From the IMG/VR virus record IMGVR_UViG_3300042869_000717, positions 14,208 to 78,207 of that record: DNA of 64,000 bases; one strand, written 5' to 3'. How positions within the stretch are numbered: the stretch's first letter is position 1; each line of letters begins with the position of its first letter. The position numbers and the translations under genes were made by a program. Below are positions 1 to 44,251 of this stretch, one piece after another. The notes below the pieces were generated by a model, which worked only from the letters and a program-made list of their open reading frames with translations, made no database searches and was not told where the DNA came from. Source of the DNA: a virus. Lineage: Duplodnaviria > Heunggongvirae > Uroviricota > Caudoviricetes.

Positions 1-2
1 CA

Positions 3-233
3 ATGTTGAAGGATGAATATCCTCAGATTAAAGATATTGTAGTAGAACCATCTGACCTTGGTGATTTTATTGTATATCGGGTAGGTATTGGTATGAAACA
101 TAACGATTTACTAAATCTTAATAAAACTGACGAAAACATATTAAAAGATAAAATTAAGAATTTATCAAAATATGTTTTAGGTAAAAATGAATGGTTAGAA
201 AACACTTTTTTTTACGACCCCCAACAATATTAA
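3..233 (+). CDS. hypothetical protein (possibly 5'-partial; ORF begins at window edge)
   Basis: ORF track; followed by strong hairpin+T-run terminator at 246-278. Confidence 0.4.
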   Translation: MLKDEYPQIKDIVVEPSDLGDFIVYRVGIGMKHNDLLNLNKTDENILKDKIKNLSKYVLGKNEWLENTFFYDPQQY

Positions 234-245
234 TAAAAAAATATT

Positions 246-278
246 CATCCCACCCATTGCCGGTGGGATTTTTTTTTC
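246..278 (+). terminator. rho-independent terminator (ATCCCACC-CATTGC-CGGTGGGAT + T9)
   Basis: perfect 8-bp GC-rich stem followed by TTTTTTTTT. Confidence 0.8.
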
Positions 279-286
279 TATCTTTG
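279..286 (+). promoter_or_regulatory. Bacteroidetes-type -7 box TATCTTTG upstream of 291
   Basis: TAnnTTTG motif 5 nt before ATG region; recurring architecture in window. Confidence 0.45.
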
Positions 287-290
287 TCCC

Positions 291-533
291 ATGAATATAG
301 ATTTAATAGAAAAATATTTGGAAGATAAGTATGGTAGTTTATCTCTAACTAAGAAACGAAATGATTATATCCTTAATGATTTATTTGATTATAATATATT
401 GGAAAAAGAATTAAGATGGTATATTGATGTTGAGTCGGATTTATTTGCTTGGTTTGGCCCTGGTAATTATTATCGGGTCATACATGATTGGTTTATCAAA
501 AGATTCGGTAAAGAAATTGGATATGACAAATAA
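291..533 (+). CDS. hypothetical protein
   Basis: ORF track 80 aa; promoter-like box upstream. Confidence 0.5.
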   Translation: MNIDLIEKYLEDKYGSLSLTKKRNDYILNDLFDYNILEKELRWYIDVESDLFAWFGPGNYYRVIHDWFIKRFGKEIGYDK

Positions 534-828
534 AGAATTATTTTTAACCTTTTTTGAAGTGGAGAGTGCCACCATTATTGGTATTAAATACCGAAACATC
601 GATAAAATTCAGTTAATATTGAACCCCACGGAGAGGAACAAATTTATGGATAAATTACCCATCAGACTTTTAATAGATAGAGAATATGGTTATTATTCTC
701 GTGTTATGGGTACCTCCGATAAAATGTTTAACCTATTTACTTATTTGGGACTCAATACAAAAGAGATTATTAGTATTTGTCGTGAGATTCATGAAGATAT
801 GGGAAGTAGAGAATTAATTGTACCTTAA
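523..828 (+). CDS. hypothetical protein (track ORF 424..828; likely start ATG 523 overlapping upstream stop)
   Basis: MTNKELF start overlaps stop of 291..533 (ATGACAAATAA); upstream part of ORF overlaps previous gene. Confidence 0.5.
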   Translation: MTNKELFLTFFEVESATIIGIKYRNIDKIQLILNPTERNKFMDKLPIRLLIDREYGYYSRVMGTSDKMFNLFTYLGLNTKEIISICREIHEDMGSRELIVP

Positions 829-971
829 TGGTATTTATTGTCAAATACTAATCATGTCAAAATCAAGAAAACCCGGGAAACCAAAAAAGAACAGAGCAAA
901 CACTCTAAAAGATTTAAAAAGAATGAATAAGAACAATGAAATTCTTAGTCGTTTAAAAAAAGAACTTTAAT

Positions 972-1006
972 AAAAAAACCTTATCATAATTGATAGGGTT
1001 TTTTTA
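972..1006. terminator. bidirectional hairpin terminator (AACCTTATCA-TAAT-TGATAGGGTT flanked by A7/T7)
   Basis: stem-loop with A-run upstream and T-run downstream between convergent genes. Confidence 0.7.
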
Positions 1007-1330
1007 ATTGTATTCGTAAAAATTCTCACCATCGGTTGTAAATCTAAGACCGAGTCGGAGATTTGGTAAATCATAATATTTTAAAAGGTTATAACATTCC
1101 TCAACTATTTCCTCTTCAATATCTTGTTCGGTTCCGTCCATTAAAAATTCAATTTGAACTTTATCTCCGTTAATGTCTTTTCGATGTTTTAATTCGTATT
1201 CAACAACATCTTCAAATTTGGGAAGTATGAAGTTATCTAATAATTTACGCACGATTTTTAATTCTTGTTCCATAATAATAAATACCACATTATTTCCTAT
1301 TTTTTTTTGTAAATAATAATTCAATTCCAT
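1004..1330 (-). CDS. hypothetical protein
   Basis: ORF track 108 aa. Confidence 0.5.
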   Translation of the reverse strand: MELNYYLQKKIGNNVVFIIMEQELKIVRKLLDNFILPKFEDVVEYELKHRKDINGDKVQIEFLMDGTEQDIEEEIVEECYNLLKYYDLPNLRLGLRFTTDGENFYEYN

Positions 1331-1353
1331 ATCTTTGTGAAAAATAAATAATA

Positions 1354-1743
1354 ATGGGATTAACTGAAGACCAACAAAAAGGGTTAGATATGATGGTTAA
1401 AATTTTAAGTAAAGAATACCCTTATATTATCGGAGCGTCTCCTAATATTGGAGATTTTGAAGAATATTCAACATTATTTACAATTAAATTGATAATGAGT
1501 AAGTTAAAACTTGAAAAATGTTTTAAACAAAAAGTAGATAATAATTGGAATGAATTTTGGAGACTTGGTAATTTATTTTATCCCAACCCGGACCCCGAAG
1601 ATTTACTTGTTGAAGAGATAAGAAGTTTAGGGAAAATGTTTTATGATGTAATAACTGATGAATATCAATTTAATAGCACGTTAACCAAAGGAGAGTTTAG
1701 ACAAGTAAAAATAAATTCATTCATATTAGATGACAAAAATTGA
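1354..1743 (+). CDS. hypothetical protein
   Basis: ORF track 129 aa. Confidence 0.5.
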   Translation: MGLTEDQQKGLDMMVKILSKEYPYIIGASPNIGDFEEYSTLFTIKLIMSKLKLEKCFKQKVDNNWNEFWRLGNLFYPNPDPEDLLVEEIRSLGKMFYDVITDEYQFNSTLTKGEFRQVKINSFILDDKN

Positions 1744-1993
1744 AAAAGAAATTGTAAAAATGATTGAGGATAAATATGGTTATCCCTACATGACATACGA
1801 TAAGGCGGAGCAAACTTGGACTAATAATTATTTTCTGTTTGATATTAAGACAGAAACAATTTATAGTTCGGATAAAGTTAAACTTGAATTAGGGAAACGG
1901 TTCGGCGCAAAATTTATTGAGAATAATTATTTCAATCTTATTTCAAAATGGTTTAAGATTAGTAACAAATATAATGTAAAGGAAGTTATTTAA
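1730..1993 (+). CDS. hypothetical protein
   Basis: ORF track 87 aa; overlaps upstream stop by 14 nt. Confidence 0.45.
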   Translation: MTKIEKEIVKMIEDKYGYPYMTYDKAEQTWTNNYFLFDIKTETIYSSDKVKLELGKRFGAKFIENNYFNLISKWFKISNKYNVKEVI

Positions 1994-2013
1994 TTTCTTG
2001 GTATTTATAACAT

Positions 2014-3429
2014 ATGGAATTAAATAAAATCATAAAGAAAGTATTAAGGGAGGCTGTTGGCATTCCTGAAGGGATTGTTGAAACTGCTGAATTGGTTTAC
2101 GGTCAATTAATGAGTGAACTTAAGTCTCTCAATTCGATAAGTGAAGACGATGAGAAACTTCATTTTCGTTTAAATGGTGATTATCAAATATCAGATTACA
2201 AATTTAAAAAAATCGATTTAACCTTAGAAATTATACGAACAGACCAAGTAGATAAAGGAACGCTTGTGGGAATGTCGTTTAACTTTAAATCGAGATTGGA
2301 TAATAATACCTTTAAAGTAATTCACCAACCAACTAAAAAGAAAATTGAATTATCAGTATCAGTTGCTATTCCGGAAGATGGGGATTTAAATTCCGTGGTT
2401 CAGGAACTCGAAAACGAAAAAGAAATGTCTATTAGTTCTCTTAGTCATGAGTTAATGCACTCTTATGATAAATTTAAAAAACCGATATCAAATCCATCAC
2501 AAAGAGCTGATTATGAAGCTTATAAAAATATTAGATTTGGTATTGACCCAATTGACGACTTTTTACATAATTTATATTTTATTCATTCAATTGAGAATAT
2601 TGTGAGACCAAGTGAAATTGCTGCGGATTTAAAATCAGGTAGTATTAACAAAGAAGGATTTTTAGTGTTTTTAAAAAATAATCGAGTTTATAAAAAATTA
2701 AAAGAGATTAATAGTTTTACATATGAGGGACTCAAAAAAGAATTACTAAATCATGTGAATATAATTCGAGAGAGATTAGAACAAAGTGGAATAGATATTA
2801 TTCCGGAGGATAATGAAGAATTAGTTAACACTGTTTTAGATTTACTTAGGATTAATTTGGTAAATGGTAAAGGAACCGTATTAAAACAAGATTTGACCAC
2901 TAATTTTTTTGAGGAGATGATGGGATTTTCAGGTAAAAAAGAAGAAGTATTTAGAAATTACGTTAAAAAAATTCAAAAATATGATAATACTGATGACTTC
3001 TTTAGAAACGAAGAAAAAATGTTTAAACGAACATCATATGATTTAATAAAAAAAATTCATAAACTATACTCTATTTTGGATAAGAACAAAGAAACAAATG
3101 AATCAATAATTAATTGGGATTTATATCATAAAATAAAAAATACACCAATTGTAATTGAGAGTGAACTTAACACCGATGACGATGGGAGAAAAGTTAAATT
3201 AATTCAAAAATATTTAGATAATGTATTAGTTCCGGGAAATAAACTTATTTGTAAAGCACAAGTTGTTCGACTTGTAAATAACGATGAATACTTAATTAGA
3301 ATTTGGGTTAATCAAAATGAACCTCACACTCAAGATGATTCAGATGATTTAGTTGATGATACATGGGATGAGATTTATAATATGTTCGAAGTCTCGACAG
3401 CAATCCACAGAGTAAAATCAGAATGTTAA
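2014..3429 (+). CDS. hypothetical protein with HExxH (SHELMHS) motif, possible zinc metallopeptidase
   Basis: 471-aa ORF; HELMH motif; TATTTATA motif just upstream; terminator after. Confidence 0.55.
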   Translation: MELNKIIKKVLREAVGIPEGIVETAELVYGQLMSELKSLNSISEDDEKLHFRLNGDYQISDYKFKKIDLTLEIIRTDQVDKGTLVGMSFNFKSRLDNNTFKVIHQPTKKKIELSVSVAIPEDGDLNSVVQELENEKEMSISSLSHELMHSYDKFKKPISNPSQRADYEAYKNIRFGIDPIDDFLHNLYFIHSIENIVRPSEIAADLKSGSINKEGFLVFLKNNRVYKKLKEINSFTYEGLKKELLNHVNIIRERLEQSGIDIIPEDNEELVNTVLDLLRINLVNGKGTVLKQDLTTNFFEEMMGFSGKKEEVFRNYVKKIQKYDNTDDFFRNEEKMFKRTSYDLIKKIHKLYSILDKNKETNESIINWDLYHKIKNTPIVIESELNTDDDGRKVKLIQKYLDNVLVPGNKLICKAQVVRLVNNDEYLIRIWVNQNEPHTQDDSDDLVDDTWDEIYNMFEVSTAIHRVKSEC

Positions 3430-3466
3430 AAAAAAATATAACCCTTCACCTCGAAGGGTTTTTTAT
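3428..3466 (+). terminator. rho-independent terminator (CCCTTC-ACCTC-GAAGGG + T6)
   Basis: stem-loop + T-run after 2014..3429. Confidence 0.75.
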
Positions 3467-3504
3467 TTGAAAAATATTTTATATCTTTACCCAAAAGATA
3501 ATTC

Positions 3505-3948
3505 ATGGAAAACTCACATATTGTAGAATGGGATTTAAGAGGGTGGATGGGAGTTGAGGAACCAACACCGTACGCACAACGAGAGTGGAATAAGACTCTC
3601 CTTAGTAAAATAATGTTGATATCAAATAAAATACATCAATCATCAAGACGAGGTGGTGCTGATACAATAATTCTTCATCCCGACCTTGAGATATTATTAC
3701 ATCCTGATTCTTATGATGACCATAGAAAAAAACTTATTAGTAATATTGATGTTATCTTGGACCCGACGATGGAAAAAGACCGAATCGAAATAAACAATAG
3801 AAAGTCATTAGAAGATTTAAGATTTATTCCATTCACAAATGACGATGAAAATACAATCGAATTCAAACCCCTTATTTCCTGCACGAACGAAGAAATTGTA
3901 AAATACATTGAAGGTCTTGTTGGATTTGTAATGATTGAAAACATTTAA
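3505..3948 (+). CDS. hypothetical protein
   Basis: ORF track 147 aa. Confidence 0.5.
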   Translation: MENSHIVEWDLRGWMGVEEPTPYAQREWNKTLLSKIMLISNKIHQSSRRGGADTIILHPDLEILLHPDSYDDHRKKLISNIDVILDPTMEKDRIEINNRKSLEDLRFIPFTNDDENTIEFKPLISCTNEEIVKYIEGLVGFVMIENI

Positions 3949-3950
3949 AT

Positions 3951-4247
3951 ATGAATAAGTGGGAACAATTTGAATATATTTTAAAATGTCTTGTACCGTC
4001 ATATAAACAAAGGTCAAGATTATCTTTAACCGTAGAAAGTAATAATTTTGCGTATTCACAATATATTCGGGACAACAAATGTATTTGGAGACTTGAAATT
4101 AGTAGGGGTAGTGAATTTTTTGAGGATATAAAAACAATTTCAGATTTTTGTGGGATATATTGGGAATATATGACATATACGATGGAACATGAACTTATTT
4201 TAGAATTGACAGAAAATAGAGAAGAAATAACACCAATTTTTTGGTAA
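3951..4247 (+). CDS. hypothetical protein
   Basis: ORF track 98 aa. Confidence 0.45.
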   Translation: MNKWEQFEYILKCLVPSYKQRSRLSLTVESNNFAYSQYIRDNKCIWRLEISRGSEFFEDIKTISDFCGIYWEYMTYTMEHELILELTENREEITPIFW

Positions 4248-4273
4248 ATTAATAATAACAAAAAAAAATAAAT

Positions 4274-4456
4274 ATGAGAGAAGAAAATTTCGCAGAATTG
4301 GTTGAAGAGTTATCAAATTATTATAATACTTCAATGTATGACGATTATCTACGTAGAGCGTTAGGGGTTATAATGGAATCTAATCTTTGTTCTGAGATTG
4401 AATTACCGAAAGAAAAAAAATCAGAAAAACCAAAATTTAATCAAACCAAAAAATAA
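4274..4456 (+). CDS. hypothetical small protein
   Basis: 60-aa ORF followed by terminator 4455-4479. Confidence 0.4.
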   Translation: MREENFAELVEELSNYYNTSMYDDYLRRALGVIMESNLCSEIELPKEKKSEKPKFNQTKK

Positions 4457-4479
4457 CCCTCACGAATGAGGGTTTTTTC
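4455..4479 (+). terminator. rho-independent terminator (ACCCTCA-CGAA-TGAGGGT + T6)
   Basis: hairpin + T-run. Confidence 0.75.
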
Positions 4480-4500
4480 ATTATAAATCTATTTATAAAT

Positions 4501-4887
4501 ATGAAATATGTAATAACAGAATCTCAATTCAAAAGATTGACGGAAGATAAAGATAATGATTTTGAATCTTATCTAACAAAACGATTCCCAAAGATTAACG
4601 ATTTAAAAATGGAAAGAAGTAATAATGTAGTTTCAGGTCCACATCGTAGATATATTAATCCGGAAAATAATGAACTTTATTTTAGAGTTGTTTTTAAAAC
4701 AGTACCAAGTTGGGAATCGGGTGTTGGTGCTTCTGACTCAGATGAGTTTATTCGTCTATATGTATCCCCAAAAATATACGCATATATTAAAAAATACGGG
4801 ATGAATTTTGAATATGATTTAATGGGGTGGTTTAACAGAACTTATAATGAAAATGTAAATTCTGTTCTTAAAAAGGTGATGGAATAA
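4501..4887 (+). CDS. MKYIITESQ-leader family protein (paralog 1)
   Basis: N-terminus MKYVITESQFKRL; tandem paralog of 4890..5273 (shared ...YKFFNP.N..F.VV...E.IRLYV...WFN.TY... motifs). Confidence 0.65.
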   Translation: MKYVITESQFKRLTEDKDNDFESYLTKRFPKINDLKMERSNNVVSGPHRRYINPENNELYFRVVFKTVPSWESGVGASDSDEFIRLYVSPKIYAYIKKYGMNFEYDLMGWFNRTYNENVNSVLKKVME

Positions 4888-4889
4888 AT

Positions 4890-5273
4890 ATGAAATATAT
4901 TATAACAGAATCTCAATATGGTAAATTAATTGAACAACGAAAAAATTTGGTTCAAACCTTCATGGAGACAAAATTCCCTGAAATGGGTAGACTAAGAAAA
5001 AGACAAACTAGAAATATGACTTTAGGCCACGGATATAAATTTTTCAACCCAAAAACTAATGATGTGTTATTCCATGTTGTTAGTGGTGGTCCGGTTTATC
5101 ATGTGAAAGGTGGTGAAACAAAACCTCTTTACGAAGGTATTAGATTATATGTCAATTCAAGTTTATATGAGTCATTAGAAAATTATATAGGGAATTTTAA
5201 AGAAGAATTACTACAATGGTTTAATGAAACTTATAAACAACAAACTAATAGAGTTATGAGAGGAATTCGATAA
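4890..5273 (+). CDS. MKYIITESQ-leader family protein (paralog 2)
   Basis: N-terminus MKYIITESQYGKL; clear paralog of 4501..4887. Confidence 0.65.
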   Translation: MKYIITESQYGKLIEQRKNLVQTFMETKFPEMGRLRKRQTRNMTLGHGYKFFNPKTNDVLFHVVSGGPVYHVKGGETKPLYEGIRLYVNSSLYESLENYIGNFKEELLQWFNETYKQQTNRVMRGIR

Positions 5274-5313
5274 TCAACCATTCATTATTCTATAAGAATG
5301 TTTATAATTACAT

Positions 5314-5475
5314 ATGAAAGATACTGTAGGAACAATTTTAGTAGAAGTAGACAAGATTATATTAAAACCTTTTGAGGGTGAAGAAGAAATTTGGGAAGAA
5401 TCCAAATCTTTGATAAACACCATTGGAACCAAATTTATCTTATTTGAAGGTAAAAAGTATTATCCTGAAAAATAA
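5314..5475 (+). CDS. hypothetical small protein (53 aa, not in ORF track)
   Basis: ATG 5314, TAA 5473; ends immediately before terminator 5478-5503. Confidence 0.3.
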   Translation: MKDTVGTILVEVDKIILKPFEGEEEIWEESKSLINTIGTKFILFEGKKYYPEK

Positions 5476-5477
5476 TA

Positions 5478-5503
5478 GAACCCACCGACAGGTGGGTTTT
5501 TTG
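5478..5503 (+). terminator. rho-independent terminator (AACCCACC-GACA-GGTGGGTT + T6)
   Basis: hairpin + T-run; lies inside the N-terminal extension of track ORF 5423..6094, arguing for start at 5525. Confidence 0.75.
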
Positions 5504-5524
5504 TTCATCATCATATTTATTATT

Positions 5525-6094
5525 ATGAAATATATTATTACAGAAAAACAAAATAAGTTGTTAATGGAAGTTAGAGTTCCAAGAGAAGAACGAATTGAGT
5601 TATATAGAAATGAGGACGTTGTGGTCGTTATCCCATTAACACATCGAGCGTTACGTAAATACGCCACATATTGTCAATGGTGTATTATTAGAGATGTCCA
5701 TGAGTGGGAACAACATCATCAGGGAACATCTATGGTGATTGTTCAAAGACACCCAATACCAATTAAAAAAGGTATTACAGGTAATCCAACTTTTTATGAA
5801 ATATATTCATTACATAGATTAAGAAACGAATACGATGATTTGGAATATGTTAATGATGTTTTGAATTATAATTTTGAATCTGATGAGATTGCTTTGGAGT
5901 ATTACGAGGAATTAATTAATGATATAAATAATTTTGGTTTGAACTCCGTATATTACGGGAATGATAACGACATTTATGATTCAGGTGATAACTACTTACG
6001 AAGTTTTGGGTACGATATTAGTAATGTTCCCAATATGACACCCAAAATTATTAAAATAATGGATGATTATTTAGAATATAATACATTAAAATAA
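5525..6094 (+). CDS. MKYIITE-leader family protein
   Basis: N-terminus MKYIITEKQNKLL; track ORF 5423..6094 trimmed to conserved Met downstream of terminator. Confidence 0.6.
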   Translation: MKYIITEKQNKLLMEVRVPREERIELYRNEDVVVVIPLTHRALRKYATYCQWCIIRDVHEWEQHHQGTSMVIVQRHPIPIKKGITGNPTFYEIYSLHRLRNEYDDLEYVNDVLNYNFESDEIALEYYEELINDINNFGLNSVYYGNDNDIYDSGDNYLRSFGYDISNVPNMTPKIIKIMDDYLEYNTLK

Positions 6095-6101
6095 TACGTT
6101 T

Positions 6102-6419
6102 ATGACAAGAGAAGAAGTAAACCAATCACTCAAAATGTTTGAGAAATTTCTACAATCCGATAAAGGTCTCGAGATTGCTCATCGATATTCAGACGATATT
6201 TGGTTTAAGTTAGATGATATCCAAACAATTACCGGTGCCGGTGAAAGTTTATACGCAGGAGGGAAATATAATATTTTCATTAAAATTGGTCATCCGTTTA
6301 ATTCCACTGTAATGGTGAGTTGGAAAAACCAACCAAAGAAACAAGATATTGAAAAAGATTTAGAACAATATCTTCCATATTTTGGATTTACCTCTCAAGT
6401 GGGGATAGCAATAATGTAA
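6102..6419 (+). CDS. hypothetical protein
   Basis: ORF track 105 aa. Confidence 0.5.
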   Translation: MTREEVNQSLKMFEKFLQSDKGLEIAHRYSDDIWFKLDDIQTITGAGESLYAGGKYNIFIKIGHPFNSTVMVSWKNQPKKQDIEKDLEQYLPYFGFTSQVGIAIM

Positions 6420-7006
6420 TGATGAAAGAACAAATTAGGAACATACTAAAAAACTATTTAAATGAAATAGTGACCTCAATACCAATTTCAAACCCAAAAT
6501 CGTCACAATGTAAGAAATTCTACGATAGGCTTAAACGTGAATTCCCAAAAACTCCTGAATATATTTTAAGAGAATTTACTACAAATATTTTATGTGGTAA
6601 TAAAGAAGTATTTCACGATGTAATGAATCAATTTTTTGGTGACCCAATACCATTTCTTGGAAAAATGTTATATAATTACCTGAAAGGTCCATGGAAACTA
6701 CAAATAATTCAAGTAAATCCCGAAGATTTTACCGAAAATACGATAAATGCTTTTATTGAAAGAGAATTTGGGAATGTTGATGCCTATATGGTTCCTAATG
6801 ATAAGGAAAGAATGGATATTCAACGAGAATTAGCCTCTTCAACAGGTAAAAATGAACCAATTATCGTAATTAAACATAAAAATGGTAAATATGAATTAGT
6901 TGAAGGTTGGCATAGAACTATGTCATCATTAAAACTTGGTGATAACGGTGAAGACCTCAAAAATTGGGATAAAGTTAAGATTAGGGCTTTTGTTTCAGAG
7001 AAATAA
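6419..7006 (+). CDS. hypothetical protein
   Basis: ORF track 195 aa, ATGA overlap with upstream gene. Confidence 0.55.
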   Translation: MMKEQIRNILKNYLNEIVTSIPISNPKSSQCKKFYDRLKREFPKTPEYILREFTTNILCGNKEVFHDVMNQFFGDPIPFLGKMLYNYLKGPWKLQIIQVNPEDFTENTINAFIEREFGNVDAYMVPNDKERMDIQRELASSTGKNEPIIVIKHKNGKYELVEGWHRTMSSLKLGDNGEDLKNWDKVKIRAFVSEK

Positions 7007-7354
7007 TTCCTCAATATTCTGTTTTCCTTCTAAATTTAATGAATGTACCCTAATTTCGGGTAATTTTACCTCTTTATTCTCACAATAATTAATTAACCAT
7101 TGAGCAGCATCATAACCGGTGTTACCATTTAACATTTTATAGTCAATATTTGATTGATTTTCAGTTAAATAGTGGTTTTGAGATAAGTCATGGTCAAAGG
7201 ACACTAGTTTCGGGATACCAAATCGTTGAATAAGGTTAATAAACTGATAAAAATCCCTTACAACTACCCAAGTATCATTTTCCTCATAAATGGGGTCAAT
7301 TGTGTTCTTAAATACATCATAAGGGGTTCTATTGTCGTCTAAAAATAATTTCAT
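6995..7354 (-). CDS. small receiver-like/CPR-like domain protein (tentative)
   Basis: 119 aa with LDDNR ... SFDHDL ... G(Y/F)D motifs reminiscent of receiver-like domains found beside RNA-repair kinases; immediately downstream of P-loop kinase gene. Confidence 0.45.
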   Translation of the reverse strand: MKLFLDDNRTPYDVFKNTIDPIYEENDTWVVVRDFYQFINLIQRFGIPKLVSFDHDLSQNHYLTENQSNIDYKMLNGNTGYDAAQWLINYCENKEVKLPEIRVHSLNLEGKQNIEELFL

Positions 7355-7371
7355 ACTACAAAAGTATGGAA

Positions 7372-7800
7372 TTAAAGTGAAATTTCAAAACGATTCTTCA
7401 TTATTTCCAATTTATCTTCAGGAACTCCGTGTTCATTGACTCCCCCGTGTCTATTTTCAACAACTAAAGAGTAAACTCTATATCCGAAGTATTCCGCCAT
7501 CTCATTATATTCCGTCATTTCCCACTCTTGGGTGAATGTATTGGAAATAACAATTCTTTCCGTGTCGTGAGCCATCTCATATCTTACATTAATTTTACAC
7601 CACTCGTGGGCGTGTTTAATGTTGGATGGAACAAACTCATATACACCAGTCTCCGGATTAATAAAAAACATATCGGCTTCGTAATGAACTCCACCTAGTG
7701 ATTCTGCTAATGTTGTTTTACCACTTCCTGGTATTACGGGAGCCCCCTTAAAAGGAATAGTTCCTTCAGGGGGCTCACTTTTTTAACTAAATTATCCATA
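7372..7800 (-). CDS. P-loop NTPase, polynucleotide-kinase-like (AAA_33-type) protein
   Basis: track ORF 7372..7671 extends in frame upstream to ATG at 7798-7800 (MDNLVKKSEPPEGTIPFKGAPVIPGSGKTTLAESL...): Walker A GSGKTT; C-terminal HGVPEDKLEIMKNRFE resembles Pnk kinase C-terminus. Confidence 0.6.
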
Positions 7801-7899
7801 TTTTATGTTTTTTTTTTATTTTTTAGTGTATTTATATTAAGAGGTTCCCCTTAATTAGGGGACAAATATAATAATTAATTTTAATTAAAAAAAATAATA

Positions 7900-8805
7900 A
7901 TGTCAAATCTCACAAGAAAATGCCCTATTTGTGGTGTAACAATAAGTTACACTAACAAATACAATATGATAAAAGCGGATAACAAAAATAGTAATTGTAA
8001 AAGTTGTGGGTTAAAATTAACTATAACCGAAGATAGGAGAGAACGTATGAAACAACGAGTTCTTGGCGACAATAACCCTATGTTTGGAAAATTTGGTGAG
8101 TTAAATCCATTTTTTAATAAAAAACATACTGAAGACACCAAACAAAAAATGAGAGAAAAAAAAGATTTTTCAGTATATAAAACAGAAGAATTTAGGGAAA
8201 AAATGAGAATTTTATCATTAAGTAATGTCACTATGTTTGGGGACTCTACTTATTATTATTATTGGGTTGATAAATATGGAGTTGAAGTTGCGGAAGAAAA
8301 AATGAAAAAATTAAAAATAAAACAATCTAAAAATACTTCAGGAGAGAATAACCCTATGTTTGGAAAATCTGTCTATGATGTTTGGGTTGAAAAATATGGA
8401 ACCGAAATTGCTAATGTTAAATTAGAACAATTAAAAATAAAACAATCTAAAAATAGTTCGGGAGAGAATAACCCAATGTTTGGAAAACCAAGTCCTGTTG
8501 GTTCCGGTAATGGTTGGTCAGGATGGTATAATAATTGGTTTTTTAGAAGTATTAAAGAATTATCATACATGATTAATGTTATTGAAAAAAATAACATTGA
8601 GTGGATTAATGCAGAATCTAATATGTATCAGATAAATTATACTGATTATAAAGGTAATAACAGAACTTATACCGCTGATTTTATATTAAAAAACAAATAT
8701 TTAATAGAAATTAAGCCAAAAAAACTTTGGTATAGTGATTCGGTGGTTAGAAAAAAATATCGGCAATTAAATTTTGTGATGAAAATAATCTTACATACAA
8801 ATTAA
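7900..8805 (+). CDS. putative homing endonuclease: N-terminal CxxC zinc ribbon, four NUMOD3-like NPMFGK repeats, C-terminal PD-(D/E)xK-like motif (DF..LIEIK)
   Basis: NPMFGK x4 (NUMOD3 hallmark of GIY-YIG/HNH homing endonucleases); CPICG...CKSCG; internal ~120-bp DNA tandem duplication. Confidence 0.6.
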   Translation: MSNLTRKCPICGVTISYTNKYNMIKADNKNSNCKSCGLKLTITEDRRERMKQRVLGDNNPMFGKFGELNPFFNKKHTEDTKQKMREKKDFSVYKTEEFREKMRILSLSNVTMFGDSTYYYYWVDKYGVEVAEEKMKKLKIKQSKNTSGENNPMFGKSVYDVWVEKYGTEIANVKLEQLKIKQSKNSSGENNPMFGKPSPVGSGNGWSGWYNNWFFRSIKELSYMINVIEKNNIEWINAESNMYQINYTDYKGNNRTYTADFILKNKYLIEIKPKKLWYSDSVVRKKYRQLNFVMKIILHTN

Positions 8806-8970
8806 GAGATACACCTAATTTATCGTCTAAAAAATTAAAAGAATTGTATGAAACAAAACAAATTATTTTTACAAAAAGATATGAAGAAAAATTTGTTGAA
8901 AAATATTTAAAAAATAATGTTGATTGATTAAGTATTTATAAAATAAGTCGCCAAAATAATATTTTTTACG

Positions 8971-8978
8971 TATCTTTG
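8971..8978 (+). promoter_or_regulatory. -7 box TATCTTTG upstream of 8997
   Basis: TAnnTTTG motif 19 nt before ATG. Confidence 0.45.
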
Positions 8979-8996
8979 TCCAATAATTAATTTTTT

Positions 8997-9419
8997 ATGA
9001 TAAATAAAACTCAATTAGAATACGTAAGTGAATTTTTGGATGGTGTTACCGTTGTGGTTGTATTTGAAGACGACCCACTATATGAACAAGTTAAAGACTA
9101 TTTTAATGAGTATGGTTTTGGGTTTATGGTTCCGGGTAGTAATTTAATTATAATTGATGGAGAAATATTAGTTGGGCTGCCAGATGCCAAAGACATTTTA
9201 AAATTTATTGAAGCTCATGAGGTCACTCATGTATTATTAGGTCATGATGGACCAAGAAATGAACAAGATGAGATAGAAGCTGATTTGGGTGCCTATATTT
9301 TATTACAAGATAAAGGATATGATAAACCAATTGAATTACTTGTAAATAATTTCAAGGAAAGACATGGTATTGAGTTTAATAAAAAAATGACTGACAATAT
9401 TAAAGTCAGATTAGAATGA
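8997..9419 (+). CDS. HExxH motif protein, ImmA/IrrE-like putative zinc peptidase
   Basis: HEVTHVLLGH motif, 140 aa. Confidence 0.45.
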   Translation: MINKTQLEYVSEFLDGVTVVVVFEDDPLYEQVKDYFNEYGFGFMVPGSNLIIIDGEILVGLPDAKDILKFIEAHEVTHVLLGHDGPRNEQDEIEADLGAYILLQDKGYDKPIELLVNNFKERHGIEFNKKMTDNIKVRLE

Positions 9420-9682
9420 AGGTAATTATTAGTGAAAATCAAGAAGATAGATTAAAATCAGCAATTAAAGAAATAGTCGAAGATATTAAAGTCCCATTAT
9501 CAATAAAAGTCGATGTTGTATTTTCATCGACTGGTGCTACATATGTTTTAATTCCATTAAAAAATTATTTAATGAGTAAGGTAAGGGCAAAATATGAATC
9601 GTTAATTCGTAATAAAATAAAAAATTATATTGGTTTAGATGTTGAAGTTATAATGATGGAGAAATCAGATATTGATTCTTAA
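9416..9682 (+). CDS. hypothetical protein
   Basis: ORF track 88 aa, ATGA overlap. Confidence 0.45.
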   Translation: MKVIISENQEDRLKSAIKEIVEDIKVPLSIKVDVVFSSTGATYVLIPLKNYLMSKVRAKYESLIRNKIKNYIGLDVEVIMMEKSDIDS

Positions 9683-9727
9683 TTGACAATATAAGATACT
9701 TTTCATATACTTCTCAAAAGATAAAAT

Positions 9728-10162
9728 ATGACTAAAGTAAAAATTTCTACAGACAAGGGAGATATGATTGCCGAACTATACGACAACGAGACTCCAATCG
9801 CAGTAAACAACTTCAAAGACTTAATCGGTAAAAAATTCTATGACGGATTAAATTTTCATAGAGTTATTCCTAATTTTGTAATTCAAGGTGGGTGTCCAAA
9901 TGGTACAGGTTCCGGTGGTCCGGGATATAATATCCCATGTGAAGTTACCGCCCCTAAACAATTTCACGATAGAGGGGTATTGTCAATTGCACACGCAGGA
10001 CGTAACACAGGAGGGTCACAATTCTTCATTTGCCATAACAGACAAGGAACCCAACATTTAGATGGTAATCACACTTGTTTTGGTAAAGTTAATGAAGGGT
10101 TAGAGGTAATCGACGCAATCAGTGCCGGTGATAAAATAAACTCAATCTCAATAATTGATTAA
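9728..10162 (+). CDS. ppiB: peptidyl-prolyl cis-trans isomerase, cyclophilin type
   Basis: FHRVIPNFVIQGGCPNGTGSGGPGY ... GVLSIAHAGRNTGGSQFFI ... LDGNHTCFGKV: canonical cyclophilin motifs over whole length. Confidence 0.9.
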   Translation: MTKVKISTDKGDMIAELYDNETPIAVNNFKDLIGKKFYDGLNFHRVIPNFVIQGGCPNGTGSGGPGYNIPCEVTAPKQFHDRGVLSIAHAGRNTGGSQFFICHNRQGTQHLDGNHTCFGKVNEGLEVIDAISAGDKINSISIID

Positions 10163-10185
10163 TAATAATGTGTAGATTGTAATAT

Positions 10186-10211
10186 AAACCCCCATCTATG
10201 GGGGTTTTTTG
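10186..10211 (+). terminator. rho-independent terminator (AACCCCCAT-CT-ATGGGGGTT + T6)
   Basis: hairpin + T-run after ppiB. Confidence 0.8.
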
Positions 10212-10242
10212 TTGTATTTATTTAATACAAGTATTTATCATC

Positions 10243-10941
10243 ATGGGAAAGAAAATTAAAGTTCGTTTAACCGAACAAGAACTAATAGATTTAATTACAA
10301 AACAATTGTCCGGACAGGATAGTATGGATATTTTGAAAGGTATGTTATCCGGTAAACCTAAAGACACTTCGAAAAGTAATGGGGACTTAACAAACCCTAT
10401 TTTAAGTTCAGGTGATAAATTCACAGAATTAAATTTAAACACGCCTGAAGGGTTTAAAGCATATAAAAATATTTCTGATAAATTTATAAATACTAGACCA
10501 TCAAACTTATTAGGTATTAACGGTGAAATGTTAGCAAACGCAGCAAAACAATCATATAATAAATTTAAATCATATGTTCCACCAGAACTGGCATTATCCC
10601 AATTGTCTGCGGAAGGAGGATTTTCTAATAATCCAAAGGCAAGACCAATTAGAACAAAGAATCCATTTAATGTTGGTAATGTAGACAAAGGCCCTAATAT
10701 TAGTCATGGGTCGGTTCAAAGTGGGATTCAATCATATTATGATTTAATGGCTAAAAATTATTTATCAGGTGGGAAAAACGCTTCAGACCTAATTGATAAT
10801 TTTGTGAATGTGAAAGGTCAAAGATATGCGTCAAGTAAAGACTACGAAAATATGGTTAAAAAAATATCCTCACAAGTTAGTCAGATGTCCCAACCAATTT
10901 ATGCATCATTAGGAGATAAAGGACAAACAGGTTTAGCGTAA
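10243..10941 (+). CDS. putative peptidoglycan hydrolase, glucosaminidase (FlgJ/LytD-like) family
   Basis: LSAEGGFSNNP ... KNPFNVGN ... SGIQSYYDLMAKNY pattern resembles mannosyl-glycoprotein endo-beta-N-acetylglucosaminidase motifs; start trimmed to MGKKIKV after terminator. Confidence 0.45.
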   Translation: MGKKIKVRLTEQELIDLITKQLSGQDSMDILKGMLSGKPKDTSKSNGDLTNPILSSGDKFTELNLNTPEGFKAYKNISDKFINTRPSNLLGINGEMLANAAKQSYNKFKSYVPPELALSQLSAEGGFSNNPKARPIRTKNPFNVGNVDKGPNISHGSVQSGIQSYYDLMAKNYLSGGKNASDLIDNFVNVKGQRYASSKDYENMVKKISSQVSQMSQPIYASLGDKGQTGLA

Positions 10942-10942
10942 T

Positions 10943-11212
10943 ATGAATAAGGATAGTAAAAAAGTTGAATCATTATTAGATGCTTTTTTTGGACATTCAT
11001 CAGTTCATCCTTATCCCGTGATTAGAATTTTAAAAGAAATGAGGTCAACCTATGATGGTGATTATCCTTATTTTGAATTAGTATATGAGGCAAACAATTA
11101 TAACCACCTATACGATATGGAAAATATAATTGAATTGGTTACCGGATATACCGGATTAAAAGAAGGTCGCGACTATTGGTTAGGTGTGACTTGGGAATTA
11201 TTAGAAGATTAA
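10943..11212 (+). CDS. hypothetical protein
   Basis: ORF track 89 aa. Confidence 0.45.
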   Translation: MNKDSKKVESLLDAFFGHSSVHPYPVIRILKEMRSTYDGDYPYFELVYEANNYNHLYDMENIIELVTGYTGLKEGRDYWLGVTWELLED

Positions 11213-11213
11213 A

Positions 11214-11561
11214 ATGAAATACATTATAACAGAAAGTCAAAAAAATCGAGGTATTCTCAAATACCTTAACACCGAATATGGTGATTTGAAACCATATAAA
11301 ACAGACGAATACCCTAACCACATATTCTTTATGAAAGATGGTGAAGTTATGTTTGACTATAATGAAAAAAATGGGGTTGCTCATGTCTCTTATACTCATA
11401 TTTGGTCATTTTTGAAATCCTTTTTTGAGTTAAATAATGAGGAAATAGAAGACCTAACGAAAGCGTGGGTGGAGGAACATTACAAATTGGAGGTGACAAC
11501 AACTATTGATGAATATTTGAGCCGTGTTTATTGGTGGAGGAACATTACAAATTGGAGGTGA
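11214..11561 (+). CDS. MKYIITESQ-leader family protein (3' end reads through first repeats of the CRISPR-like array; true stop uncertain)
   Basis: N-terminus MKYIITESQKNRG; last ~30 codons coincide with 36-bp repeats. Confidence 0.5.
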   Translation: MKYIITESQKNRGILKYLNTEYGDLKPYKTDEYPNHIFFMKDGEVMFDYNEKNGVAHVSYTHIWSFLKSFFELNNEEIEDLTKAWVEEHYKLEVTTTIDEYLSRVYWWRNITNWR

Positions 11562-11700
11562 CAACAACGCTTTTGCGTTACATCGAAAAAGGAAAAAGGT
11601 GGAGGAACATTACAAATTGGAGGTGACAACAACCCACATTGATTTATTTCGGAAAAAAAAGTCTGGTGGAGGAACAATACAAATTAAGTAAATTATGAAA
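11468..11700 (+). CRISPR. cas-less CRISPR-like mini-array: 3 identical 36-bp repeats (GGTGGAGGAACATTACAAATTGGAGGTGACAACAAC) + 1 degenerate terminal copy, spacers 29/29/31 bp
   Basis: repeats at 11468-11503, 11533-11568, 11598-11633, degenerate 11665-~11700; period 65-67 bp; alternative: diverged tandem duplication. Confidence 0.4.
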
Positions 11701-12060
11701 TACATTATAACAGAAAGTAAATTAAATCAAACGGTTAAAAATTACCTAAACAACACTTTGGATATTGAAAATATTAATTGGACTCGTTTAACTGATGATT
11801 GGGGTCAGGAACAAGACGCAATTGAATTTTATTTAGGTGATTATATGGATGATGAAACATTGTTCAGGTTATATGGTGAAGACTATTGGACCGGAGCATC
11901 AGATTACCGAAAACCATTAAGTCCAATGTTGTATGTTGAAGACCAAGGACTTCTTAACTCATTAGAAGGTTATTTTAATGATAATTGGAAAGAAGGATTT
12001 AAAGAATGGTTTGTTGAAACTTTCAAGATACCTGTTAACACAATAGAATATTACATATGA
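11695..12060 (+). CDS. MKYIITESK-leader family protein
   Basis: N-terminus MKYIITESKLNQT; start abuts degenerate repeat. Confidence 0.6.
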   Translation: MKYIITESKLNQTVKNYLNNTLDIENINWTRLTDDWGQEQDAIEFYLGDYMDDETLFRLYGEDYWTGASDYRKPLSPMLYVEDQGLLNSLEGYFNDNWKEGFKEWFVETFKIPVNTIEYYI

Positions 12061-12389
12061 TAGATATAAATCAAAGAAAATCATTACAAAAACTACTCAA
12101 TAGTGATATTATAAAAAACATATATCCTGTTATTGGAAATATAGATGTTCATTATTTTGAAAGTGAAAGTAGTATTACAAGTGATTGGTTAATTTTAGAC
12201 ATTTATTTGAATGACCCTGAAGTAAATAGAGATAATTATTGGGATAAATTTCAATTAGACCAATATTATTTAATTGACCATCATATTAGAAAATTATTAC
12301 CTTATATTGGTATCAATAACGACAATACTGGTTTTAGGTACAGAATGTATGATACTGACTTTAATATAATTGAACGAAATGATAAATAA
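12057..12389 (+). CDS. hypothetical protein
   Basis: ORF track 110 aa. Confidence 0.5.
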   Translation: MIDINQRKSLQKLLNSDIIKNIYPVIGNIDVHYFESESSITSDWLILDIYLNDPEVNRDNYWDKFQLDQYYLIDHHIRKLLPYIGINNDNTGFRYRMYDTDFNIIERNDK

Positions 12390-12588
12390 CAATATAAGAT
12401 TCCTTAAATATCTTATTGTTTGGGTAGGTTCCAATTTGGCAGTTCCATTTTGGGTTGTTGGTCACGTTCATCTAACAATGAATCTATATAAAGACATTTA
12501 TGAAATTATTGCATCTTGTGGAATGAATATTTTAGTTATGGTTGCGTTTTGGTTAGAATGGAAAAAACATAAAAAAGAGAATAACTAA
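12370..12588 (+). CDS. small hydrophobic (membrane) protein
   Basis: 72 aa, two hydrophobic segments. Confidence 0.4.
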   Translation: MNEMINNNIRFLKYLIVWVGSNLAVPFWVVGHVHLTMNLYKDIYEIIASCGMNILVMVAFWLEWKKHKKENN

Positions 12589-12634
12589 TTACAATTTAAG
12601 AAATAATTATACATTTATAAAAAAACACAAAACT

Positions 12635-12826
12635 ATGGCAAATTTAACCCAAGACGAAAAGGCAAGATTGTATAATGATATGATAATGAGATATCAAAGA
12701 ATGCAAGAAGAAGTGAGACAAATTAAGGCGGAGAATTTTGAAGTTTCCGACTCGGACCAAGAAAAAATAAATTTAATTGAATCTAAAATGAAAAGACTTT
12801 TCAATGATTCTCAAAAATTATATTAA
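12635..12826 (+). CDS. small coiled-coil protein
   Basis: 63 aa, charged heptads. Confidence 0.4.
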   Translation: MANLTQDEKARLYNDMIMRYQRMQEEVRQIKAENFEVSDSDQEKINLIESKMKRLFNDSQKLY

Positions 12827-12910
12827 AAGATAACCTCTCCAACAAGGAGTTATTTTATTTTAATTTTAAACTTACGAAGTAACGATATATTTATCATTAT
12901 ATTTATAGAT

Positions 12911-13411
12911 ATGGGAACTAAAAGATTTACAATTACAGAATCAGAAATTAAATCCATCAAAAAACTTTACATGATGGAACAATCTGAAGAAAAAGAAGAT
13001 AGAAAATTCTGCCATGGTGGAAATGTTAGGTCATTAGACGAGATTATGGGAGATGACGACGCGGAAGATTATATTGAGGGAGTGTCAATTAGGAAAAACG
13101 GTATTAATGGTTTAGTTGATAGATTAGAACTATTGAAAACACTTAGATTGCATCCAAAAGTTTCTGATGGTGGTGAACATCTGGCATCAGAAATCATGAA
13201 CCATCTTAAATCATTCAAACCTTACAACTATTTTGACGAAACAAAAAAAGAATGTAATAAAGCGATGGATAAAATTATTGAACTTTATAAAGAAAATGAG
13301 CATGGGGAGGAATTAGTTAAAGACATTGAAAAGGTTTATTTAATGAATCATGTGTCCCCGCGGGCAAAAGAATTCTTAAAACACGGGATTTCAATGATTA
13401 AAGGTCGTTAA
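12911..13411 (+). CDS. ITESE-leader family protein
   Basis: N-terminus MGTKRFTITESEIKSIKKLYMMEQ resembles leader family. Confidence 0.55.
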   Translation: MGTKRFTITESEIKSIKKLYMMEQSEEKEDRKFCHGGNVRSLDEIMGDDDAEDYIEGVSIRKNGINGLVDRLELLKTLRLHPKVSDGGEHLASEIMNHLKSFKPYNYFDETKKECNKAMDKIIELYKENEHGEELVKDIEKVYLMNHVSPRAKEFLKHGISMIKGR

Positions 13412-13471
13412 GTTGAACTTTTAAAAAATATCTTTTATAATTAGTGTTCCATTAGGGACACTTTTTTTTTT

Positions 13472-18856: not shown

Positions 18857-19513
18857 TTAAACATACTTAAACACATATCCGTGAGTTTGATTTCGTTTAC
18901 CTTTAGCCACTAAACAAGCCTTACTATTTGATTTGTGAAACCCTAAAATTCTACACGCTTCTGAAATAGAGTGAAATCTCCCAACATACTCATTATTATT
19001 GAAGTTGTAAACATCTGTGGATTTTGCCTGTCCTGATTTAATTGTTCTTAATGATTGTTTATGTTTTTCTTCCTCAGACCTTTTTTGGCCTGTTAAAGAT
19101 TTACTTCTTTTTAATATGGTTTCTTTTGATGGTGATTTACCAAAATTGGGGTTTTTATCCCCTAATTTGGATTGTCTCATTTTTTCTTTAGTGTTTTCAG
19201 ACATAACACAATTCCATATACCATCACCACCATCCGTCATATTACATAAACACCCAGTGTTTAAATCTTTCCTACCATATAATTTAATAAATTCTTTTTC
19301 TTTTTCAGACGCTTGATTTTTAGTTAAACCTTCAAATAAAATCTCAATTTCAATATCGGTTTTATTAGATATTTTTCTCCAAATTTCATTACGTCTGTTA
19401 GGTTTGGTTTGATATGCTCTTGCGTGATTTTTTTTATTACCTATACCGATATAAAAAGGCTCAGTTTTGTCCAATCTAATGTGTCTATAAACATACCAAT
19501 TATTTTCCATCAT
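18857..19513 (-). CDS. GIY-YIG homing endonuclease (I-TevI/Seg-like) with NUMOD-type DNA-binding C-terminus
   Basis: WYVYRHIRLDKTEPFYIGIG ... R ... E ... N; NPNFGKSPSKETILKRSKSLTGQ NUMOD3-like; C-terminal HTH. Confidence 0.85.
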   Translation of the reverse strand: MMENNWYVYRHIRLDKTEPFYIGIGNKKNHARAYQTKPNRRNEIWRKISNKTDIEIEILFEGLTKNQASEKEKEFIKLYGRKDLNTGCLCNMTDGGDGIWNCVMSENTKEKMRQSKLGDKNPNFGKSPSKETILKRSKSLTGQKRSEEEKHKQSLRTIKSGQAKSTDVYNFNNNEYVGRFHSISEACRILGFHKSNSKACLVAKGKRNQTHGYVFKYV

Positions 19514-31504: not shown

Positions 31505-31509
31505 GATGC

Positions 31510-31546: not shown

Positions 31547-31565
31547 AAAATATTTTATTTTTTTT

Positions 31566-44169: not shown

Positions 44170-44175
44170 CAATTT

Positions 44176-44246: not shown

Positions 44247-44251
44247 CAAAA

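Follow-up and report, generated by a model that had tools for sequence, protein, structure and literature searches.

The window, a 64,000-nucleotide stretch of an uncultured tailed phage (Caudoviricetes; IMG/VR record IMGVR_UViG_3300042869_000717, positions 14,208 to 78,207), contains a short array of the CRISPR type that lies between two small genes. Coordinates are window positions unless they are prefixed by a contig label (e.g., L063, L068, and L080). The array comprises three exact copies of the 36-mer GGTGGAGGAACATTACAAATTGGAGGTGACAACAAC, followed by a fourth copy in which 20 of the first 21 nt are retained before the sequence gives way to AAGTAAATT-ATG, where the ATG is the start of the next gene (Table 1). 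No match to the 36-mer was recovered from 100 dinucleotide-preserving shuffles when up to three mismatches were allowed. The intervening segments yield periods of 65, 65, and 67 nt, and the array displays the properties by which CRISPR arrays are generally recognized, namely near-identical direct repeats (23-55 bp) with unique spacers of comparable length between them.

The open reading frame (ORF) upstream of the array covers repeat 1 and most of repeat 2, and the downstream ORF begins shortly past the truncated repeat copy. A preliminary description of this DNA had reported the three identical repeats, the spacer lengths, the placement of repeat 1 within the 3' end of the upstream coding sequence, and the proximity of the last copy to the downstream ATG, and the sequence and shuffles bear these out. 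It had also described the fourth copy as degenerate, which is correct, with 19 of 21 nt conserved, which is one too few. The two flanking ORFs, regarded therein as paralogs, indeed share the N-terminal sequence MKYIITES and are 78% identical over 58 nt. An identical 240-nt array was recovered in an independent assembly from ENA, and 14 further contigs were grouped with the window based on mostly the same neighboring proteins, a grouping that covers the proteins and not the arrays. A scan of the locus against Rfam (E ≤ 10) returned only chance matches resembling snoRNAs and no CRISPR direct repeat (CRISPR-DR) family, and scans of the locus for promoters, terminators, and folds identified nothing beyond chance.

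Table 1. Features of the array locus in the window and of related nuclease loci on other contigs.
Feature	Position	Strand	Remark
Small conserved gene, 115 aa	11214..11561	+	Body in the place of an array 'leader'; ends within repeat 2, which is read in the +2 frame (…WWRNITNWR*)
Repeat 1	11468..11503	+	Gene-proximal ('leader') end; encodes VEEHYKLEVTTT, last 12 codons of the conserved domain
Spacer 1, 29 nt, TATTGATGAATATTTGAGCCGTGTTTATT	11504..11532	+	Exact match to a gene of another phage
Repeat 2	11533..11568	+	Identical to repeat 1; TGA inside ends the upstream ORF
Spacer 2, 29 nt	11569..11597	+	Beyond the reach of the ORF, yet stop-free in the coding frame of the repeat
Repeat 3	11598..11633	+	Identical to repeat 1
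Spacer 3, 31 nt	11634..11664	+	Oldest, trailer end; also carried by L063 and L064, which are near-identical variants that differ at the gene-proximal spacers
Truncated terminal repeat (first 21 nt, one mismatch)	11665..11685	+	Stop codons in every frame come next, before the ATG of the downstream gene
Downstream paralog-like gene (MKYIITESK…)	11695..12060	+	Start 10 nt after the array
Nuclease, RNA region, and array	L080 831-2600		5.4-7.2 kb upstream of the window
Nuclease, RNA region, and array	L082 9563-11260
Nuclease, RNA region, and array	L083 8001-9720
Nuclease, RNA region, and array	L086 10001-11682

Translation of the upstream gene proceeds through repeat 1, read as VEEHYKLEVTTT, across spacer 1, and into repeat 2 in the +2 frame (WWRNITNWR) before reaching a stop. 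Residues ~7-100 of the product are predicted by AlphaFold to form a confidently folded alpha/beta domain. Repeat 1 doubles as the last 12 codons of this conserved domain of ~97 residues, and the body of the gene therefore occupies the usual position of a leader. This in-frame embedding was missed in the preliminary description: rather than a non-coding array behind a non-coding, AT-rich leader, the array is fused to a conserved coding gene and is kept open for translation by spacers that avoid stop codons. The protein has 92 homologs in a collection of 5.8 billion proteins and 1,445 clusters at 50% identity; the homologs all lack annotation, and cultured phages encode none of them. The majority are 113 aa in length and end in …WVEEHYKLxVTTT, nine variable residues, and WRNITN, which corresponds to a repeat, a 29-nt spacer, and a repeat; others carry two to four in-frame copies of the motif. 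Homologs that are otherwise nearly identical end in unrelated 9-aa tails. The motif WVEE[HY]Y is also present in homologs that lack an array (L014-L019 and L005). Several distant members, P0097 (760 aa), P0213 (588 aa), P0095 (346 aa), and P0102 (180 aa), are single long ORFs that hold two to five units of domain plus in-frame repeat/variable-peptide array, which suggests a polyprotein-like product in some lineages.

Scans of viral and metagenomic contigs, together with look-ups of individual loci, reveal that the array belongs to a large undescribed family in uncultured aquatic T4-like phages. A total of 43 distinct arrays with one to seven spacers each were identified. Every array examined directly follows a homolog of the upstream gene and ends in a repeat stub of ~21 nt, with ~6-15 nt between the terminal repeat and the ATG of the next gene. 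On some contigs, gene-plus-array units are arranged in tandem (four in a row on L053). The 88 unique spacers are predominantly 30 nt (54) or 29 nt (24) in length, with the other 10 ranging between 27 and 33 nt, and no spacer is duplicated within any array of the family.

Comparison of close relatives reveals how the arrays change. In three sets of genomes with flanks that are 98-100% identical, the gene-proximal spacers differ, yet the distal spacers are shared: the window carries S1-S2-S3, L064 carries S4-S3, and L063 carries S3; L008 carries a-b-c-d-e and L006 carries x-d-e; and L027 carries y-p-q and L025 carries p-q. Among relatives with ~90% identity in the gene, spacers are identical only at random level, which suggests that spacers are replaced rather than mutated. 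At positions that discriminate repeat 1 from the terminal stub, internal repeats agree with repeat 1 in 69 cases and with the stub in 4, which fits duplication of the repeat at the leader end and not unequal crossing-over with the stub. These comparisons show that the gene-proximal end gains new units, each comprising a spacer of 29-30 bp and a copy of repeat 1, and that old units persist distally, as in CRISPR arrays with polar acquisition and a degenerate terminal repeat. The 5' GGTGGAGGAACA and 3' ACAACAAC ends of the repeat are invariant across the family, synonymous sites included, and the terminal stub holds the consensus GGTGGAGGAACATTACAAATT in any reading frame, even where repeat 1 deviates from it. 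This suggests that constraint acts, at least in part, at the level of the nucleic acid.

The origin of one spacer could be traced. A 22-nt core of spacer 1 matched a single IMG/VR contig (L068; IMGVR_UViG_3300034167_000495), and the match extends over 32 of 32 nt (L068 3417-3448), comprising the 29-nt spacer and the preceding AAC that forms the end of the repeat. The protospacer is located within an ORF in the position of terS (L068 3259-3687), directly upstream of the gene for the large terminase (TerL), and the spacer and the target ORF are in the same sense and the same frame. No other similarity between L068 and the window was detected. At the corresponding position, homologs that are 73% identical to the target ORF carry a segment that has diverged yet is recognizably homologous, which indicates that the segment is native to this gene family of L068. 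For the L068 TerL, the nearest relatives are the large terminases of phages of Bacteroides, Flavobacterium, Polaribacter, and Cellulophaga. Spacer 1 was captured from another phage. The targeted segment resembles a helix-turn-helix (…SSRTIDEYLSRVY…), and L068 is a small phage of the Bacteroidota type. The search for spacer targets proposed in the preliminary description thus succeeded for spacer 1 and failed for spacers 2 and 3 in IMG/VR and INPHARED; a merged pattern for the latter two had no exact match in IMG/VR. IMG/VR scans with two other spacers of the family recovered only their own arrays, as did local BLAST searches of the spacers against all fetched loci.

These observations bear on whether the array is simply a tandem duplication of the 3' end of the gene in which the segments between repeats diverged via unequal crossing-over, an origin that we consider highly improbable. 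It would account for repeat 1 being coding sequence and for the resemblance of spacers 2 and 3, which are alike at 15 of 29 ungapped positions. The preliminary description had flagged this resemblance as a caveat, but it is within the range observed for pairs of unrelated spacers. The repeats are 100% identical and the spacers between them are at random level, internal repeats copy repeat 1 with no hybrids involving the stub, and spacer 1 is part of a foreign 32-mer; the spacers are mutually unrelated rather than one diverged, duplicated unit. Tandem Repeats Finder did not call the array locus, because the segments between the repeats are unrelated. In this respect the array differs from 'false CRISPRs', tandem repeats in coding genes that lack spacer diversity and can mostly be called by Tandem Repeats Finder (PMC5294841). 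It resembles them in lying across an ORF and in lacking a cas gene next to it, whereas spacers in the family of the window array are hypervariable, are replaced only at one end, and in one case match a foreign protospacer. Collectively, the hypervariable spacers of 29-30 nt, their turnover at one end, the truncated terminal repeat, and the exact foreign match corroborate the proposal that this is a genuine CRISPR-type array, and the comparison with related phage loci that had been suggested as a check extends CRISPR-type behavior to 43 arrays.

A candidate effector is encoded nearby. Over window positions 1-13428, the window is matched at 99.993% identity by a contig from ENA (L080) that reaches 8 kb further upstream, and this extension carries a gene for a 400-aa protein (L080 831-2033), located 5.96-7.16 kb before window position 1. 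The protein scored 184.5 bits against the NCBIfam model guided_TnpB (cut-off of 100) and matched the Pfam Cas12f1-like TNB domain (E value of 2.5e-20); matches to the C2c8 and Cas12f2 models were weak and far below the cut-offs. Inspection of the translation by eye identified the motifs GIDVG, QVEDI, and DRDINAAKNI, which we take to be an intact RuvC D/E/D triad. The gene is followed on its 3' side by a structured, GC-richer region of ~200 nt that resembles a trans-activating CRISPR RNA (tracr-like) and then by an array (L080 2250-2532) with the repeat GTTGGGAATCATCACAATTTGAAAGGTAGTCACAAC, periods of 66, 65, 66, and 65 nt, and spacers of 30, 29, 30, and 29 nt. The first repeat copy of this array is degenerate in its 5' half and the last is cut after ~21 nt and followed by a terminator; such a terminal stub (20-21 nt in the effector-adjacent arrays) is shared with the gene-embedded arrays. 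No hairpin was identified in the L080 repeat, and its alignment with the window repeat scored above all 5,000 shuffles. A 15-nt perfect inverted repeat (L080 2068-2082 and 2549-2563) brackets the RNA region and the array.

In homologs that are 85, 52, and 49% identical to the nuclease, the structured RNA region and an array of 36-nt repeats ending in …TTTGAAAGGTAGTTACAAC are retained without exception. Across these loci, the arrays have spacers of 29-30 nt and a last repeat that is truncated, and a terminator follows. In a second lineage (L082/L033), a nuclease with its array occurs together with a gene-embedded array of five spacers. These loci look like a compact type V system or an intermediate in the transition from transposon to CRISPR. 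The look-up of cas genes beyond the window, recommended in the preliminary description, thus yielded a TnpB/Cas12f-like gene, and the designation of the array as 'Cas-less' is correct for the 64-kb window but not for the genome, which carries this gene with its array 6-7 kb upstream.

The translated state of the arrays leaves a distinct signature in their spacers. In the frame that is continuous with VEEHYKLxVTTT, spacers of the family contain 12 stops in 796 codons, and the other frames contain several-fold more. First spacers account for 10 of these stops (in 393 codons) and later in-frame spacers for two (in 251 codons). Overall, 90% of spacers are stop-free, compared with the 56% expected without a filter. 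The non-coding, effector-adjacent arrays, which served as a control, show no such filter, with 6 of 14 spacers being stop-free. The codon-usage score of stop-free spacers, calculated with stops ignored, was -0.027 ± 0.055; fragments of gene-dense phage DNA drawn from any strand and any phase and then filtered for stops are predicted to score -0.032, and in-frame pieces of genes are predicted to score +0.32. These scores show that the spacers behave like pieces of foreign, phage-like DNA taken at random with respect to strand and phase. Many relatives translate the whole array, and in the window it is translated only up to repeat 2; as a result of this translation, spacers with a stop in the frame of the gene are filtered out. 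Every spacer may enter at the translated first position, where insertions that contain stops would be removed. The cost of a stop would likely fall on the operon, for example through lost coupling to the next gene, the ATG of which abuts the stub.

Several other ideas were considered and rejected. Frame-aware capture (e.g., of ribosome-protected fragments) is ruled out by the codon-score test. Programmed frameshifting or ribosome hopping finds no common slippery motif at 29-nt spacers, and a GTGA termination-reinitiation overlap is absent from most repeats of the family. Most spacer peptides are not helix-like, as hypervariable recognition helices of helix-turn-helix proteins would be, and neither a reverse transcriptase nor a template/variable-region pair that would indicate a diversity-generating retroelement was identified.

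Alternatively, the function of the arrays could reside in the protein, with translated peptides of 9-11 variable residues displayed between conserved 12-residue motifs, akin to the hypervariable cores of multi-core peptide precursors or to variable binding loops, and with the DNA repeats serving as sites of exchange. The spacers are stop-free in the frame of the gene, and in relatives from jumbo phages spacers are only 27, 30, or 33 nt in length, such that whole arrays, sometimes with several gene-plus-array units, are single ORFs. Fused ORFs with two to five units, including P0097 and the four in-frame units of P0102, and the spacer peptide QEFGWR[IL]Q[EK], which upon inspection is kept with mostly synonymous or conservative changes, are likewise consistent with selection on the peptide, and in AlphaFold models the residues at the start of the spacer are part of a beta-strand in the predicted fold. 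However, 27% of spacers are 29 nt in length, which breaks the frame and silences what lies downstream, and two of the three spacers in the window are untranslated. The stub is conserved as DNA in any frame, the ends of the repeat are invariant at synonymous sites, and the codon score fits random-phase fragments and not coding sequence. Moreover, no maturation enzymes are encoded nearby, and the homologous non-coding array beside the nuclease would be left unexplained. Collectively, these observations make a function in the peptides unlikely.

Cyanobactin precursors of the PatE type provide the closest analogy for such peptides, in that recognition segments conserved at the nucleotide level flank short hypervariable cassettes of varying number. 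The arrays described here share the arrangement of conserved segments around variable cassettes, and differ from PatE in their frame-breaking 29-nt spacers, the lack of nearby maturation enzymes, the codon statistics of random fragments, and the related array beside a nuclease.

We consider it similarly improbable that the arrays are functionless by-products, in which the 3' end of the gene happens to resemble a CRISPR repeat of the phage or its host and off-target integrations are tolerated as scars. The presence of WVEE[HY]Y in array-free homologs indicates that the coding sequence predates the array, which favors this explanation, and the 3' handle of the repeat has diverged from that of the effector-adjacent array; stop avoidance, in turn, may merely spare the operon. 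Nevertheless, the repeat ends and the stub are held to consensus across marine and freshwater lineages beyond what coding would require, and within this very large family most members have an array, often with one at every tandem paralog, as in the four units of L053. The identity of the window array in an independent assembly and the 14 additional contigs grouped by neighboring proteins also argue against tolerated scars.

Based on the 36-nt length of the repeat, its …ACAAC end, and an internal TTGGAGG, the preliminary description likened it to type VI-B (Cas13b) repeats of Bacteroidetes. Type VI-B repeats are 36 nt in length, fold into a conserved hairpin with a poly-U loop, and have ends (GUUG and CAAC) that are complementary (bioRxiv 10.1101/092577). 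The window array has the corresponding geometry (a 36-nt repeat and spacers of ~30 nt) and lacks the remaining features: the 5' end of its repeat is GGUG and not GUUG, it has no poly-U, and its minimum free energy of -1.6 kcal/mol (z = 0.56) was matched or surpassed by 139 of 200 shuffles. The array is also not adjacent to cas13b, and spacer 1 is in the sense orientation relative to the mRNA of its target and therefore could not guide Cas13b. The array is therefore not of the Cas13b type, and the phage has a candidate nuclease of its own, the miniature TnpB/Cas12-like protein that is encoded, together with a related array, just outside the window.

The host of the phage is probably a member of the Flavobacteriia. 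In a rival explanation, the phage would encode no effector for the array, and type II-C or VI-B machinery of such a host (Cas1-Cas2 with Cas9 or Cas13b) would load spacers against competitors. Arrays of Flavobacterium columnare have 36-bp repeats and spacers of 29-30 nt, as does the window array; their leader-distal repeat end is GTTGT, base 36 is leader-proximal, and the VI-B arrays adapt in trans via the II-C Cas1-Cas2 (PMC8092290). The reverse complement of the window repeat likewise begins with GTTGT, and its variable end is on the gene side. This match in geometry, in the mixture of 29- and 30-nt spacers, in the GTTGT end, and in polarity leaves room for a role of the host in adaptation. 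The phage targeted by spacer 1 is of Bacteroidota type, and its protospacer is followed by N5-6 TAAAA, which resembles the II-C protospacer adjacent motif of F. columnare (PMC5524643), albeit on the leader-distal side, opposite to the rule in F. columnare. Compared with Flavobacteriia II-C and VI-B systems more broadly (PMC8092290, PMC5524643, bioRxiv 10.1101/092577), the window array shares the 36-bp repeats, the 29-30-nt spacers, the GTTGT…/…ACAAC end, polar acquisition, and the occurrence of arrays without their own cas1 and cas2. It differs in that its repeat has no hairpin, poly-U, or GUUG end, in that cas9, cas13b, and an anti-repeat are missing from the window, and in that its leader is a gene.

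Searches for the machinery or for a host repeat did not support such hijacking. ORFs of at least 200 aa in the window (the largest being 471 aa) had no match among Cas, reverse transcriptase, and integrase families, and a scan of the window for tracrRNA-like anti-repeats identified nothing above shuffles. Among the genomes of 185,579 species, no array was found with the repeat: a 21-mer search returned zero matches and a search for the conserved ends at the right spacing returned two chance singletons, with both patterns demanding the coding 5' half of the repeat. The 3' half of the repeat (RRGGGTNACAACAAC; reverse complement GTTGTTGTNACCCYY) on its own lay outside what these patterns could find. 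Loading of host Cas proteins is thus unsupported as far as patterns that depend on the 5' half are concerned. The unstructured repeat, the sense orientation of spacer 1, and above all the related effector-linked array in the same phage, which is a simpler partner, render it unlikely.

Viral mini-arrays that target other viruses are an established precedent (PMC11656645, PMC7099407), as are solitary repeat units (PMC10651486). Like them, the window array is short, virus-borne, without adjacent cas genes, and equipped with a spacer that matches another virus. However, viral mini-arrays contain one or two spacers that mostly target related viruses (PMC11656645), have repeats identical to those of host CRISPRs, and reside in non-coding DNA. 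The window array contains three spacers (one to seven across the family), its repeat was not found in a host with patterns that demand the 5' half, its first repeat is coding, its known target belongs to an otherwise dissimilar phage, and its phage encodes a candidate effector.

Taken together, these comparisons make it probable, on balance, that this genuine CRISPR-type array is a satellite of a miniature, TnpB-derived type V system that is encoded by the phage and directed against competing phages, a reading that draws on sequence comparisons. Transcripts of the gene and array would yield guides that consist of the 3' handle of the repeat and a spacer, and such guides would direct the TnpB-like nuclease against competing phages. 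Spacers would be integrated by a repeat-duplicating, Cas1-Cas2-like integrase, possibly that of the host, as none was found in the phage DNA examined.

Several observations weigh against this satellite role. Genes for cas1, cas2, cas4, a reverse transcriptase, or an integrase were not detected in the window, in the 8 kb upstream of it, or beside related arrays. The nuclease-adjacent and window arrays are ~17 kb apart, their 3' handles (AAAGGTAGTCACAAC in the window and GGAGGTGACAACAAC on L080) are identical at only 9 of 15 positions, and prediction of RNA duplexes between the tracr-like region and either repeat gave no informative signal. Co-occurrence of a nuclease locus and a gene-embedded array is documented in only two lineages. 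A protospacer in IMG/VR was found for only one of ~5 spacers tested, and 85 spacers, searched as a concatenated sequence, had no match among 50,697 phage genomes in INPHARED; most CRISPR spacers usually have no identifiable match. The 17 spacers located beyond the reach of an ORF contain no stops in 152 codons, and a filter on these spacers is explained only by assuming that they entered at the translated first position. The single-spacer variant L063 derives from an assembly at k = 31 and could be an artefact of collapse. Lastly, the mostly synonymous or conservative changes in some jumbo-phage 'spacers', observed by inspection of three copies, hint at a role at the protein level in those phages.

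Miniature type V systems that evolved from TnpB are known from phages and include Cas12j/CasΦ, Casλ/Cas12n, Cas12f-like systems, and the 'Cas12 hacker' (bioRxiv 10.1101/2025.01.20.633832, PMC12141684), with PMC10691335 as a further source. The system described here resembles them in its small TnpB-like effector of the RuvC type, a long structured tracr-like RNA, a short array with repeats of ~36-37 nt, the lack of adaptation genes, and spacers against other phages. It differs in that its effector is only 400 aa in length and scores as TnpB rather than as any named Cas12 subtype. In addition, the window array is located 17 kb from the effector and is continuous in frame with a protein-coding gene, its repeat has diverged, and arrays of this kind follow many paralogs of the gene.

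It is conceivable, and we advance this only tentatively from the sequence patterns, that 'translated' CRISPR arrays represent a new class. In such arrays, the gene would act as leader and as supplier of the first repeat, arrays would follow most paralogs (>1,400 clusters), and these would serve as satellite guide libraries for a 400-aa, TnpB-like intermediate between transposon nucleases and Cas12. The small protein may act as a new accessory factor, coupling translation, the biogenesis of guides, or the uptake of spacers. In the literature, we found no description of translatable arrays that start in the end of a conserved gene and recur after many paralogs.

CRISPR finders normally discard repeat-spacer patterns that overlap ORFs, and the family, with 92 close homologs and 1,445 clusters, may therefore constitute a hidden reservoir of spacers. 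Such a reservoir would record conflicts between phages in lakes and oceans. A very small TnpB-like nuclease with its own array, a tracr-like RNA, and distant arrays would bear on the origin of type V systems from transposon nucleases, and at 400 aa it is a compact candidate for genome editing. The arrays further suggest that spacers can coexist with translation, with stop-codon avoidance as a measurable signature, and they direct attention to the enzyme by which spacers are integrated in a phage where neither cas1 nor cas2 was detected in the DNA examined.

The remainder of the window is that of a large uncultured phage, with 31% GC, 23 tRNA genes, and several homing endonucleases. Searches of the array region against the cultured phages of INPHARED with megablast and tblastn returned nothing, and no close cultured relative was found. 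The tRNA cluster (43788-57347) contains 23-24 genes. For one of these (57181-57257), ARAGORN gives an anticodon of four bases (gtaa), and at 45530-45667 Rfam matches a tRNA over 138 nt, a stretch that ARAGORN did not call and that possibly harbors an intron or insertion. ORFs resembling HNH/helix-turn-helix endonucleases are interspersed among the tRNAs (46108-46902, 52856-53503, and 57424-58221), and three NUMOD3-containing ORFs resembling homing endonucleases (7900-8805, 18857-19513, and 25988-26737) add to a region that is rich in mobile nucleases.

The N-terminal motif shared by the two genes that flank the array, M(K)(Y)IITE(S/E)(Q/E), also begins otherwise unrelated small ORFs (4501-4887, 4890-5273, 5525-6094, and 54511-54897, in addition to 11214-11561 and 11695-12060), with looser versions at 23830-24450 (minus strand), 35717-37072, and 38874-39797. 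These starts resemble the capsid-targeting leaders of T4, which are cleaved after (L/I)xE. A 24-nt tandem repeat (37934-37979) within the ORF at 37801-38865 encodes a Gly/Ala-rich stretch (AGAGLGAAAGAGLG). Auxiliary genes (9728-10162, 26803-27636, 30425-31606, 31566-32420, 40577-41320, and L080 14982-15341) encode products that comprise a cyclophilin-type PPIase, thymidylate synthase, a T4-type RNA ligase 1, an SPFH/Band 7 protein, a ClpP protease, and a protein with a cREC_REC (cyclic-phosphate processing receiver) domain, and a ClpB-like AAA+ ATPase is encoded just past the far end of the window (L081).

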